A stretch of 64,000 bases of DNA from Bacilli bacterium (GCA_017622175.1 JAGARQ010000023.1:2429-66428), one strand, 5' to 3'. Counted from the stretch's first letter, positions 33,001-39,000 are shown. Program-made: the numbers.

Positions 33001-36000
33001 ATCTGCTAAAAGACATCCAGGATGTTTGGAACTAGCTACTTGCATGTATGCTGATTATGGACATATGACTGTTCATGAAATAAGTAGAAAGGAATTCAAA
33101 CAATTAAAGAAAACTTATAAAGAAATAAGAAAGCAAAAGAAAAGTTCATAAATTATGAACTTTTTTTATTTGTTTTTTTTATTAGTTGGAATGATTTACC
33201 ATTTTCTACAGTCTCTTCTGTAAGAATTACCTCGTCGTATTCGCCTGGGTTGGAAATTACTTCATCATAAGCTTGCCATGTTGAATCTGTAATTAATTTA
33301 TTTAAACCACGTGCACCAATTTTTTCTTCTAAGGCTTTTGATGCTATTGCAACGATATATCCATCTTTTGTTGTTAATTTTACTCCTTCTTCAGCGAAGA
33401 CTTCTTCTTGAAGTTTTAGGGCTGAATCCTCTGATTCAAGTAATATTTTTCTTAATGAATCAATATTTAAATTGTTTAAATGAATTATAACAGGAACTCT
33501 TCCCATGAATTCTTTTGGCATCATTGCTTTTTCTATAAATTCAGTCATTGTTGGTTCTGTTTGTTCTTTCTTTTTTTCTGCTGTTGAAGCTACAAATCCA
33601 CACGGAGTTGATTTTTTTTCTTCATAAACATCTAAGAATGCTCCACCGCCAACAATTAGCATGTTTGTTGTATCTATTCTAACACTTGTATCAGCTGTTT
33701 GATGTTGTTGGTTTTTACAAGCTGTATATTTTGTTCCATCTAAGAATTTTAAAAGCATATTTAAGACCGCTTGACCTGAAATGTCTGATTTTTTTTCTGA
33801 ACCTTTTTTATCAATTTCATCAAAGAAAACTATAGCTCTTTCTGCTTGTTTTAGGTCACGTCCACAATCTTCGTATAATTCCCATAATTTTTGTTCAATA
33901 CTTTGCCCAACAAATCCTGCTGCTGTTAATTGAGTTGAGTCTATATATAATACTGGTCTGTTTAAATATCTTCCAATAAGTTGCATCATTAATGTTTTTC
34001 CCGCACCCGATTGTCCAGTTAATAGGATTCCATAATCTTTTTTTCGCATTCTATCTAATCTTGAAAGTTCAACAATCATTCTTCTTGCTGGTTGATCTTG
34101 AGCGATTAATACTTTTGTTACTTTATTAAATACATCGTTAACATCAATTAATTCTATTTGTGAATTAGATTGGTTTTTTAATGGTGTTGGTGCTGGTGGA
34201 GTTGCTTTTTCAGGTTTTCGCCCTGTAATCTTATCTAATTCCTCTTCTAAGGCCTCTCTATGTATATCTACTGATTCAATGGCTGCTTCTAGTTCTTCTT
34301 TTTGTTCAAGTAAACGATATTTTATATCAATTAACTCATCTGGTGAAAATTTACCCTCTATAATTCTAGCAACTAAGTCTTTTAATGATTCTATATAAGC
34401 ATCTTCTTCATCTTCTTCTATAGTTTCTTCTTTAGGAACTGGATTAACGCCCTCTTCATAAGCATCTGGGTCATTTTGAACTTTTTCCATTGCATTTATA
34501 TATGGTCTTTTATCAATTGGTAACATTATAAAACCACCATTTGGTCCTTTTGTTACATAATAGACAATATCTTTGCAACGTTTTTCATATTCATGAATTG
34601 CATCAGAAAAATCATATTGATGATTATATATTTCTACAATTCTGTCAACTTCAATTATATTTGTATAATATAGTGTATTTTCATCAAAGTCACTAAAGTC
34701 ATCGATTCTTTTATATTTATTTCCATTTGTTGTTACAAGCATATGAGTTTCTTCATCAATGTCTCCAGCAGTGATTGAATCTACTACATATACATAATCG
34801 TTTTCACCTACTGGTGTTTTTTTCATTACTGTTGCAAAATATTTCTCTGGCATTTTAATTCCCCCTGATGCGAATTTATGTCTATTAATATATACTAAAA
34901 TGCCATATTATTCAATAAAAAAGACTAAATCTTTCGATTTAGTCCTAAATATCTCCTTCATAAATCATTTTTAAGTCTGTATTATAATATTTTAATGAAT
35001 TTGCTTCTGTATCTTTTACAGTAATGTAATTAGAATTTACTGTTAGTGTTTTGTCTTTATCAATACTTAATGATTTATTTGATAATAGGTTATATACTTT
35101 TCTTGTATCTGATGCATCATCTGTATAATAGATAAATGTTGTTTGTTCTCTTTTTGTTAAGTATGAAGTATTAAATTCTACTATTGCTTTCTTTTGAGCA
35201 AGATCAATTAAGTACCACTTACCATCATTTTTACCATAAATATAGTCTTTTTTATTTGCTTTTAAATATTTATATAAATCTAAATCTAAATATTCTAACG
35301 AGTCCCATTGACAAGGTAATGTAATAACATCATTATTCATTAGTCCATATCCATCGCTACATGTAAAATACTTATTATTTGTTTCTTTTTCCCATGAATT
35401 TAAATCTTCTTCATCTTCTTTATCATCTTCATCTGTTGATGATGGTTGTTCTTTAACAACTTCACCAGTTTTTAGATCAAAGTATGAATATCTATCGCGC
35501 CAATCAGTTACTGTACCATCTCTTAGAGATAAGTATCCAGGATAATAATATACTGACATTTCTTCATTTGTTGTAGAATACATTACTTTATCATTTTGTA
35601 CATAGAATTTTTCTTTAAAATCATATGATGAGTCTTTTACTGTAAAGATATTGTCTGTATTTGATGAAATTCTTTCTTCAGCCATTTCTCTAACAACAAC
35701 ACCTGTGTCACAGTTAATTACTCCATATTTTCTTTCTACGTTAACTACACAATATCTTTCTTTTTGAGATTCATCAATACTTGGAATCGTTACATAGATT
35801 GATGTTTCTCCTGATTTGAAATTATATGTATAAATTTGTTTACCTTTTTCATTCATTAATCCACCAGTATTTTCTTTTGAGTTTACCCATAAATAATACT
35901 TATCTTCTTTATGATCAACTCTTACACCTTCTGGTGAGATTTTTTTCATTTTATTATTATATAGTTCTTCATCTATAATCCATGAATCATTTTCTTCGAT

Positions 36001-39000
36001 GTATTCAATTTTTGTTTTTGCTTCTTTTTGTACTTTACCTTTGTTATCAATGATTTGATATACAGTTTTTGTTAAACCATCTGTTTCTACTTCTGATCTT
36101 ACTACTGCATATTTTCCTTTAAAGTCTGTAGCATATTCATATTTTGTAGAAATTTTAACATTTCCTTCTGTATCAATAAATCCATACTTATCATCTTTCT
36201 TAACTTTGATTAGTTGTTCTGGATTAAAGATTGCATCAATTTTATCTTTTTCTAGTTTTTCCTCACTTGGATTTAAGTTTAGTAATAAAATTACACACAC
36301 AATAATTGCTGCTACTGCAACTAGTGCTCCAATTATAATTAATGGAGCTTTTGATTTTTTAGGTTTGTTTTGAGGATTTAATCCTGGTTGTTGTGGTATT
36401 TGATTATATTGTTGATTAACAGGTTGCATAGTTGGTTGTTCCATAACCGGTTGTTGCATCACTGGTTGCTCAACTTGAGTTTCTTGCATTATTGGTTGTT
36501 GCATCTCTGGTTGCGCTGGTTCATCAACTTCTAATATCTCTTCTACTTCTTCATTATTTATATTTTCTTGTGGTGCAGATTGTAAATCATAACCGCATGA
36601 ACCACAAAATCTTGCGTCTTGATTGTTTACTGCGTTACACTTTGGACAATTCATTTTGTACTCCTCCTACTCTTTCTATCATATCCATTATATCACAATT
36701 TTTTTATTTTCAATAAAAAATCTACACGATTGTGTAGATTTGTTTTTTAATTATTTTTTTAAAGCTTTAACTGCAATGTCATATAGTTTTTCCATAGCTT
36801 TTTCGCTTTTGTTTTTTTCCATATTTTTACGCATTTTATCAAGTACTTTTGGATGTTTTGAAATTTCTTTCATATATGACATGAAAGTAAATGGGAAGCG
36901 GAATCTTTTTCCATAACCATTTCTTTCAAAGTATTTATAGTTTCCGACTTCTTGTCCACCTGAACAATTAATCATTAAAATTGGTTTTTTGAAATATAGT
37001 GTTTCTGTTGTTTGAGCCCCTCCTGGTTTTGAAACAACAAAGTCACACATTTGAAGAAGTTCTGGCACATTATTAACATATCCAAATGTTTTAATATTTT
37101 TTGCACCTTGTTCTTCTATCCATTCATCGACTTTTGCTTTAGAATTTAAGTTTTTACCAGCAACGTAGATAAAATCAATATTTAAGTTTGACTTAATAAC
37201 TTCTTTAATATATGGAAGGGATAAAACACCACCGTTTCCTCCACCACCGAAGAATAAACAAATTGGTCTATTTCCACTAAAGCCATATTTTTTAGTCGCT
37301 TTTTTAGGATCAAAGTTATTTGCTGTTATTGGATGGATTGGAATACCAATTGGTTTAATGATTTTAGGACTAACTCCTTTTTTAACTAAGTATTTTACTT
37401 CGTCTTTATCACCAACAATAATGGCTTCTTCCTCTTTATAACCTTTTAACCATAGTGAGTGGGCCTCATAATCTGTAACAACTGTTATTAGTTTTGTTTT
37501 TGTATAACCTTTTCTATTATAGTGGTCAATTAAACTACTTCCGAAGAAGTGTGTTGATATAGTTAAATCTGGATCAAAATCTGTTATTACTTTTTTCATA
37601 CGTTTATTTCTAAATAAACTTGAACTCATATAATTAGCTACTTCACTACTTATCTTGTGGTCAAAAATATTATATATTGTTGACCATCCAGCTGGGAACT
37701 TTAATAAAAAGAAATCTGTTATCTTTTGACTTAGTGTTCCAAGTACTGGCATTGAGTATTTTAATAGGTCAATTGCAAGTATTTCTAGTTCTGGATCTTG
37801 AGTTTCGAAATACTTTTTTATATATTCAGCTACTGCTTTATGTCCACTTCCGTACATAGCATAAGTTATTAATATTTTTTTCTTCATCTGTAATCTACCT
37901 CTATTTTAATTATACAATATTTTTTTTAAATTTCAAATATTGATGTAAAGATTATTTACTTTGTTTTGTTTTAGAAACCATTTCTTCATGAAATCTTCTA
38001 TATATATCAAAGTTTTCTTTTTTAGGTGTAAATGTAAATTTTTTTGTTTTTAAGTGTGGTTCTAAAACATATGCACAATCTTGTTTTGATGTTTGAAGTT
38101 GTTCTCTTAATTCGATAGCTTTTAAGTATGAATACAAGTATGCCATATCATCTATAAGATCTGTTGGTGCTATTTCTTCTCTTAAGAAATCTATTAATCC
38201 TTCTTGTGTTTCAGACTCACATATTTCTTGGAATTCTTTTACAAATACATCTGTTGGAACGTTAAAATTCATTGATGCAAATGTTAACATTATTTCAAAG
38301 TAATTAAATAATGTTAGTAGTTGTTCTTCGGCATCAAGCATTCTATCTTTATAGTCTCCTACATTTAAGAATCCTTGGTTTTTATATAAAGTATCATTGA
38401 ATAATAATTCTATTAAAATCGGACCTAATTCAGCATAATATCTGTGGCCTTCTAGTTTTCTTAATTCTTCTACTGCATGTTCTGTTTCATGGGCTGTTAT
38501 CCAAGAAGCATTTTTAGGATTTAATATTAAGTATGGTAATCCTGTTATTTCATCGTAATAGCAATAAGAAGATGTTCCTAGATTCTTTACTTCTTGAATT
38601 TGTCTTATAATATCATTTGATAAAATTGGTTTGGCTGCTTTTAGTAAACGTTTCGAGTGATCGTGATATGTTTCTAAAGTTGTTTCTACTTGATCATCTA
38701 GTGTTAGTATTGTTTTTTTATTACGACCTTTTATTTTAAATATTTCTTCATAACCAAGGTCCATAGTCCATAATATTGTTTCTTCTCCTAAATTATGATA
38801 CTGACTTTCCATTCTTCTTAAAATATAATGCTTTAGTTTTTCAAGATCATGAGGAGGTTTTGGTATAAATGTTGGTCTACTATCAAAATCACCATTTGTA
38901 AATCTTGTAAAAGTTTGAATATCTGTTCTGATGCTTTTTTTAGTTGCTTTTGATAATTTAGGGTCGTCTAAAAGAACATAACCTTTAGCGATTACATCTT

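Follow-up and report, generated by a model that had tools for sequence, protein, structure and literature searches.

A predicted ClpX-type unfoldase with a family-specific N-terminal region in uncultured gut Bacilli

ClpX is among the best-understood protein-unfolding machines, and its N-terminal zinc-binding domain is the platform on which adaptors and substrates are selected. What is to be made of a ClpX-like motor that carries a different head and stands beside a putative membrane sensor? This question is raised by a locus in a 64,000-nucleotide stretch of DNA from a Bacilli bacterium (GCA_017622175.1 JAGARQ010000023.1:2429-66428), hereafter called the window. The window has a G+C content of ~27%, is situated close to an end of a 143,724-bp metagenomic contig and contains a series of housekeeping genes (alaS, mutS/mutL, uvrC, gltX, RNase J, transketolase, and xseA). 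An earlier, sequence-only reading had proposed that an unfoldase gene (here clpXL) and the adjacent gene for a zinc-ribbon/WG-repeat membrane protein (here ZnWG) form a dedicated module of an unfoldase and its substrate or adaptor. Our analysis leads to a different answer, to which we give a probability of roughly 0.6: ClpXL would be a lineage-specific unfoldase of the ClpX branch that docks on ClpP with an altered choice of substrates, transcribed separately from its neighbor and embedded in a conserved core synteny. Both open reading frames (ORFs) are as that reading had given them, and neither is a chance ORF, many full-length homologues of each protein having been found:

33153–34853, minus strand: ClpX-like AAA+ unfoldase gene (clpXL), a 566-aa ORF whose best family is ClpX, with a score below the cutoff
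34945–36654, minus strand: ZnWG gene, encoding a 569-aa protein with a zinc ribbon, a Pro/Gln-rich spacer, one transmembrane segment and a WG-repeat ectodomain; a neighbor with no demonstrated partnership

The motor and the N-terminal region of ClpXL

The C-terminal part of ClpXL contained the following elements, of which the short motifs were located in an alignment of the family:

33153–34145, minus strand: ClpX-type AAA+ module (residues 237–566) with large and small subdomains, assigned from family, PDB and fold matches and from motif conservation
33993–34016, minus strand: Walker A, G280-QSGAGK-T287
33906–33917, minus strand: pore-1 loop, G313-F-V-G316, equivalent to GYVG of ClpX
33816–33821, minus strand: Walker B, D345-E346
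33594–33602, minus strand: C418-G419-F420, equivalent to the ClpP-docking IGF tripeptide of ClpX, placed by alignment with E. coli ClpX

Pfam detected AAA_2, AAA and ClpB_D2-small across residues 276–523. The best NCBIfam model was ClpX, matched over model positions 103–413 of 418 and thus over the whole AAA+ module, with a score of 187 bits as opposed to 54 for HslU and 41 for ClpA. When PDB sequences were searched with the 566-aa protein, E. coli ClpX came out on top (E=6e-40; HslU, E=8.5e-15). A Foldseek search with the full-length AlphaFold2 (AF2) model gave ClpX or ClpXP chains for all of the best 50 matches, at 27–31% identity and template-modelling (TM) scores to the target of 0.7–0.83, indicating that ClpXL shares with ClpX a single AAA+ module with the same large/small subdomain fold. 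ClpX was therefore the closest family by both sequence and fold, ahead of HslU, ClpA and FtsH, and we regard it as almost certain that ClpXL is a ClpX-branch AAA+ unfoldase.

A homologue search with the 566-aa protein returned >400 homologues, and the best 120, which were listed, were covered over essentially the whole protein down to ~37% identity. Conservation of the motifs was counted in an alignment of 113 family members with E. coli ClpX (114 sequences). The Walker A lysine, the Walker B glutamate, the arginine finger (equivalent to R307) and the sensor-2 arginine (equivalent to R370) were each present in 113/113 members, the complete Walker B DE pair in 112–113 of the 113. The pore-1 aromatic residue was found in 111 of 113, and both glycines of this loop were kept, giving the G[YF]VG pattern of ClpX. 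At the position aligned with E. coli I268-G269-F270, the family reads (I/V/M/L/C)-G-F, the glycine being present in 113/113 and the phenylalanine in 111/113 members (CGF at residues 418–420 of ClpXL), while the remainder of the loop varied in sequence and length and had low values in the predicted local distance difference test (pLDDT). Judged by these sequences, strong purifying selection acts on the motor elements and on the xGF loop, and nothing that marks an active ClpX-type translocase is missing from the 566-aa protein. The earlier assignment of the C-terminal ~300 residues to a ClpX-like module with intact Walker A/B and sensor motifs, and of a CGF loop to the IGF position, was thus borne out.

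Conversely, ClpXL lies outside the canonical ClpX equivalog. Its scores missed both equivalog cutoffs (TIGR00382/NF003745; 187 bits vs 359 and 156 vs 371), amounting to about half of the required score; its identity to E. coli ClpX is ~30%; and it has neither the C4 zinc-binding domain nor the RKH loop. The relatives of ClpX provide two points of comparison. HslU (ClpY) belongs to the same AAA+ unfoldase clade and shares the ClpB_D2-small-type C-terminal subdomain, but its match to ClpXL is weak, as seen in the values given above, and HslU has an inserted I-domain and no IGF loop, where ClpXL instead has an N-terminal domain and an xGF loop. Mitochondrial CLPX and yeast Mcx1 are ClpX-core unfoldases with lineage-specific additions that alter substrate choice; their PDB sequences matched ClpXL at E~1e-34 over query residues 266–407 only, and mitochondrial CLPX retains the zinc-binding N-domain that ClpXL lacks. 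Together, these results indicate that, by sequence, fold and motifs, ClpXL is an altered ClpX that works like ClpX and not a new type of system.

In place of the zinc-binding domain, ClpXL has ~235 N-terminal residues, made up of three elements and a second disordered linker (residues 211–236) that leads into the motor:

34443–34853, minus strand: N-terminal alpha/beta domain (residues 1–137), predicted by AF2 and unique to the family according to profile searches
34401–34442, minus strand: acidic disordered linker (residues 138–151; 8 D/E in 14 residues), variable in length and sequence, with pLDDT <50 at residues 138–150
34224–34400, minus strand: conserved helical hairpin (residues 152–210), with helices at 152–165 and 171–210 and pLDDT ~82–86

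AF2 predicted residues 1–137 as an alpha/beta domain with a pLDDT of 92 and a predicted TM score of 0.81. The hairpin kept the pattern L..VI.GK.S..EL..L in the alignment and is a possible oligomerisation or collar element. Residues 1–260 are acidic as a whole (isoelectric point 4.5; 57 D/E vs 31 K/R) and contain a single cysteine, so that a C4 site is lacking, and no Pfam match to zf-C4_ClpX was found anywhere in the 566-aa protein. The loss of the zinc-binding domain had been correctly recognized from the sequence. The accompanying description of ~260 residues of unrelated acidic sequence was right in that the region is acidic and unrelated to known families, but it is not merely acidic, being composed of a folded domain, linkers and a hairpin.

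We then sought relatives of the N-domain. A profile of 34 N-domains found nothing significant among PDB sequences, a Foldseek search with the domain gave no match at E<=0.001 in PDB or BFVD, and a Pfam scan of the 34 domains one by one revealed no recurrent family, in agreement with the earlier view that the region has no known family. Searched against 1.84 billion representative proteins, the profile matched 218 clusters at E<=0.001, almost always at the N terminus of proteins of ~500–630 aa; wherever a source was named, it was an uncultured low-GC member of the Bacilli from gut or rumen. Of the few exceptions, eight atypical matches were read individually, and these proved to be five C-terminally truncated fragments, one repeat artefact, one chimera and one longer member of 704 aa. 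Among GTDB genomes, sampled at one per species, 164 stretches matched, and 80 loci were kept (L001–L080); 74 of the 80 ClpX-like ORFs at these loci had the N-domain, the others being four fragments and two divergent members. The domain was not found in IMG/VR viral contigs or GenBank phages, where the matches comprised the AAA+ part only, at ~30–35% identity. On the evidence of these sequence searches, the N-domain is a family-specific invention that occurs solely in fusion with the ClpX-like motor.

Gene order around clpXL

All 80 loci came from uncultured gut, rumen or faecal assemblies. Their source labels were mostly Bacilli, Mycoplasma, Tenericutes, Mollicutes and Erysipelotrichaceae, with a few Muribaculaceae, Clostridia and Acidaminococcus (examples being 'Mycoplasma sp. 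CAG:877', 'Clostridium sp. CAG:451' and 'Candidatus Onthousia'), lineages that we take to be the RF39/RFN20-type orders. Proteins identical to the two encoded here are labelled by NCBI, in a 'Bacilli bacterium' metagenome-assembled genome, simply as 'AAA family ATPase' and 'WG repeat-containing protein', consistent with the earlier statement that neither has a characterised orthologue. In the literature, we found no description of such a ClpX variant or of the Clp content of RF39-like lineages. At one locus (L037), two ClpX-like genes stand in tandem (7003–8688 and 8694–10376), and at two others a frameshift, pseudogene formation or an assembly error has broken the gene into a pair of ORFs (L041, 6142–7898; L066, 8764–10406).

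The downstream side of clpXL is marked by two features:

32777–33151, plus strand: orf124-family gene (124 aa), convergent to clpXL, with no Pfam, NCBIfam or PADLOC match
32539–32615, minus strand: tRNA-Met(CAT), a synteny marker downstream of clpXL

The orf124 family was the commonest protein-coding neighbor of the ClpX-like gene, occurring downstream in 30/69 loci. A tRNA-Met gene lay within 1.5 kb downstream in 37 of 69 loci, often followed by tRNA-Gln(CTG) and gltX, and gltX itself was found downstream in 25 of 47 loci. This order persisted where the upstream side was scrambled. The conserved downstream synteny of orf124, tRNA-Met and gltX indicates that the ATPase gene behaves as a vertically inherited core gene. 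In the window, the stop codons of orf124 and clpXL are 1 nt apart and lie within a 12+12-nt palindrome, AAAAGTTCATAA A TTATGAACTTTT (33140–33164), which spans both coding ends, so that both proteins end in KKSS. Together with a T-run on the plus strand, the palindrome may serve both genes as a bidirectional terminator that lies within their coding ends.

On the upstream side, the gap between ZnWG and clpXL and the region beyond ZnWG contained these signals:

34921–34946, minus strand: intrinsic-terminator hairpin with an 11-bp stem and a U-run, directly after the ZnWG stop codon
34887–34915, minus strand: promoter-like TTGAAT-17-TATATT (consensus match) for clpXL, followed by a GGGGG ribosome-binding site
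36718–36741, strand unassigned: bidirectional terminator-like hairpin between a ugtP-like glycosyltransferase gene and ZnWG

The hairpin, the TATATT element and the G-rich ribosome-binding site were shared by the window and four relatives (L001, L002, L003 and L088), and in these five genomes the stem sequence of the hairpin differed while its pairing was kept. With a terminator, a promoter-like site and a ribosome-binding site in the 91-nt gap, ZnWG and clpXL are predicted to be separate transcription units.

As had been described from the sequence, the 569-aa protein combines a zinc ribbon (Zn_Ribbon_1, residues 3–24), a P/Q/E-rich spacer, one hydrophobic segment (A103–L125, preceded by KPKKSK) and WG repeats (WG_beta_rep, PF14903, residues 157–186). 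The last match was above the gathering score (29.7 vs 25.6 bits), placing the protein among WG repeat-containing proteins, to which its family adds the N-terminal ribbon, the spacer and the transmembrane segment. The family is small, with 74 matches compared with >400 for the ATPase. A member with 40% identity keeps the order ugtP, ZnWG, ATPase and a small convergent ORF, whereas two more distant homologues have no zinc ribbon and stand in unrelated contexts, not beside the ATPase. Elsewhere in the window, a second zinc-ribbon membrane protein is encoded at 744–1181 (plus strand), with an N-terminal Zn_Ribbon_1 and DUF4190. Membrane proteins headed by a zinc ribbon thus recur in this genome, and the WG protein's ribbon is no peculiarity of the ATPase locus. 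A distant WG-repeat protein unrelated to the locus, P0327, has extracytoplasmic-function sigma factor domains (Sigma70_r2/r4) fused to WG_beta_rep, so WG repeats are not foreign to signalling proteins.

To count the upstream genes, we used the 75 genome loci whose upstream sequence extended for at least 2 kb and searched for ZnWG by tblastn. The gene was present upstream of the ATPase in 4/75 loci (L001, L002, L003 and L041), which are among the window's closest relatives. At other loci, the upstream gene encoded a MurD-like ligase (12 loci), a YbaK-type tRNA-editing protein (10), a 300-aa protein (7), a short-chain dehydrogenase (6), a nucleoside phosphorylase (3), an SPFH protein (2), a divergent CotZ-like protein (7 ORFs in 6 loci) or the second ATPase copy of the tandem pair. 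Given these heterogeneous upstream genes and the separate transcription units, the adjacency of ZnWG is best seen as gene order inherited within one sub-clade.

Probable ClpP coupling and rival explanations

By analogy with ClpX, ClpXL would assemble as a hexamer and thread substrates through its pore, the pore-1 loops gripping them and the xGF loops docking into the clefts of ClpP to deliver them for degradation. Selection of adaptors and substrates would have passed from the zinc-binding domain to the new N-domain, which may oligomerise by way of the helical hairpin, and the substrate repertoire of the clade may thereby have been rewired. The zinc-ribbon/WG gene would then be an independent, separately transcribed neighbor in one sub-clade. 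Going by the xGF loop, we consider ClpXL probably, though by no means securely, coupled to ClpP.

Several observations weigh against this picture. We searched for clpP and clpX by tblastn, using ClpP of B. subtilis and ClpX of E. coli as queries, in a set consisting of the window and 88 loci, which samples ~1% of each genome in a non-random manner. Neither the window, nor its 10-kb extension on each side, nor the 80 genome loci and three further ones (~1.4 Mb) yielded a clpP match. With no clpP in the sampled sequence, conservation of the xGF loop is the single line of evidence for ClpP coupling. The RKH loop was not found either: the aligned positions are H/Q/T and vary across the 113 members, so that canonical ssrA-type recognition may not apply, and this absence suggests a different recognition of degrons at the pore entrance. 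The role assigned to the N-domain is likewise drawn from analogy with the domain that it replaces. As for a tmRNA, whose tag could have hinted at ClpX specificity, neither the window nor any of 60 scanned loci had one.

In another explanation, ClpXL works independently of ClpP, as an unfoldase or remodelling chaperone that acts without proteolysis on complexes recognised by its N-domain. ClpP-independent functions of ClpX are established, clpP was not seen in the sequence sampled, and the architecture of ClpXL departs from that of canonical ClpX in the three respects named above (zinc-binding domain, RKH loop and sub-cutoff score). We nevertheless regard this explanation as unlikely: the glycine and phenylalanine of the xGF motif are near-invariant (113/113 and 111/113) within an otherwise variable, disordered loop, which would be difficult to account for if nothing docked there, and the sequence sampled for clpP is such a small part of each genome. 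Another partner might be the orf124 protein, acting as an adaptor, anti-adaptor or substrate of the unfoldase, an idea compatible with the ClpP-coupled model. Its gene is the most frequent protein-coding neighbor across ClpXL identities from 76% down to ~35%, and its stop codon is almost contiguous with that of clpXL, yet it is convergent and hence not co-transcribed, it is absent from more than half of the loci, and the whole block of clpXL, tRNA-Met, tRNA-Gln and gltX is syntenic, so that the adjacency may be nothing but inherited order; we judge such a partnership improbable.

The proposal that the zinc-ribbon/WG protein is a substrate, adaptor or membrane anchor of the unfoldase, as in an anti-sigma or regulated-proteolysis system, fares worse still. 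In its favor, the two genes lie side by side in one orientation, 91 nt apart; within the sub-clade of the window, the order ugtP, ZnWG, clpXL holds even where the WG protein is no more than ~40% identical; and an AAA+ unfoldase could plausibly act on the cytoplasmic N-terminal domain of a membrane protein. Against this, the pair is not kept together across genomes (4/75 loci), an outcome that the earlier reading had itself named as refuting the idea, and the ATPase family is far broader (>400 clusters vs 74); a conserved terminator and promoter separate the genes; the more distant WG homologues are located elsewhere than the ATPase; zinc-ribbon membrane proteins are common in this genome; and the N-domain is equally conserved where no ZnWG gene is near the clpXL locus. 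No sigma factor gene adjoins ZnWG, whose neighbors are the ugtP-like glycosyltransferase gene and the ATPase gene, and its cytoplasmic domain is just a generic Zn_Ribbon_1, which speaks against the anti-sigma-like interpretation. A functional partnership is thus very unlikely, and we are largely confident that the ClpX-like gene is not tied to ZnWG in function; the more exciting idea of a dedicated module of unfoldase and membrane sensor is not supported. Most remote of all is the explanation that ClpXL is an IetA- or DolB-type ATPase serving in anti-phage defence or belonging to a mobile element. The weak matches that point to it (PADLOC DolB, 5e-7, and IetA, 3.5e-5; NCBIfam IteA, 6e-4) cover the generic P-loop region only and lie far below the ClpX score, no partner protease or effector is found beside the gene, the locus is in conserved housekeeping synteny, and no member of the N-domain family occurs in IMG/VR or GenBank phages.

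A ClpP-coupled ClpX variant of vertical inheritance remains the explanation that we prefer. In the tblastn set described above, no canonical clpX was found, and just the ClpX-like gene itself matched. It is conceivable, but in our view doubtful, that ClpXL replaced canonical ClpX across an order-level clade of gut and rumen Bacilli as the sole ClpX-type unfoldase or, alternatively, that the motor works without ClpP; if such a replacement took place, Clp degron and adaptor recognition would have been rebuilt from scratch in these organisms. A synteny of tig and clpX is common in Firmicutes. On a related contig with a G+C content of 24.5% (L087, 4607–7377), tig is followed by a WG-repeat gene and a convergent ftsW, with no clpX, and an EngB-like GTPase gene lies a few genes on. 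This order is a hint, from a contig that is not tied to a genome with the ClpX-like gene, that tig and clpX lack their usual arrangement.

With a ClpX-type motor, a family-specific head and an altered pore entrance, ClpXL may represent a natural experiment in the re-targeting of an AAA+ protease, carried out in a large and abundant uncultured gut group. The label 'AAA family ATPase' conceals what appears to be a core proteostasis factor of these bacteria, a point relevant both to specialists in AAA+ proteases and to the annotation of this abundant lineage.

Other observations in the window and related loci

Sporulation-type genes are present in the lineage; several public records label the organisms as Mycoplasma, Tenericutes or Mollicutes. 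CotZ-like, cysteine-rich proteins of 137 aa adjoin the ATPase in six loci (L029, 1858–2702; L038, 5984–6397; and L042, L046, L048 and L052, each at ~9360–9810), and Pfam matches to SpoIIM and SirA were found on the window's contig (L084, 7428–8018; L081, 2513–2941).

In the window, a 370-aa ORF at 37952–39064 (minus strand) contains an HETEH motif and has no family match. The 300-aa protein encoded directly upstream of the ATPase in seven loci (e.g., L010, 9044–9946) contains an HEFNH motif and has no Pfam match. Both may be unannotated metallopeptidase-like proteins; kinship between them was considered and dropped, the BLASTP match being not significant (E=0.08). Two further ORFs of the window, of 722 aa (17117–19285, minus strand) and 489 aa (3362–4831, minus strand), had no NCBIfam match at E<=1e-10; the latter has an FtsX Pfam domain and adjoins genes for an ABC ATPase and a two-component system.

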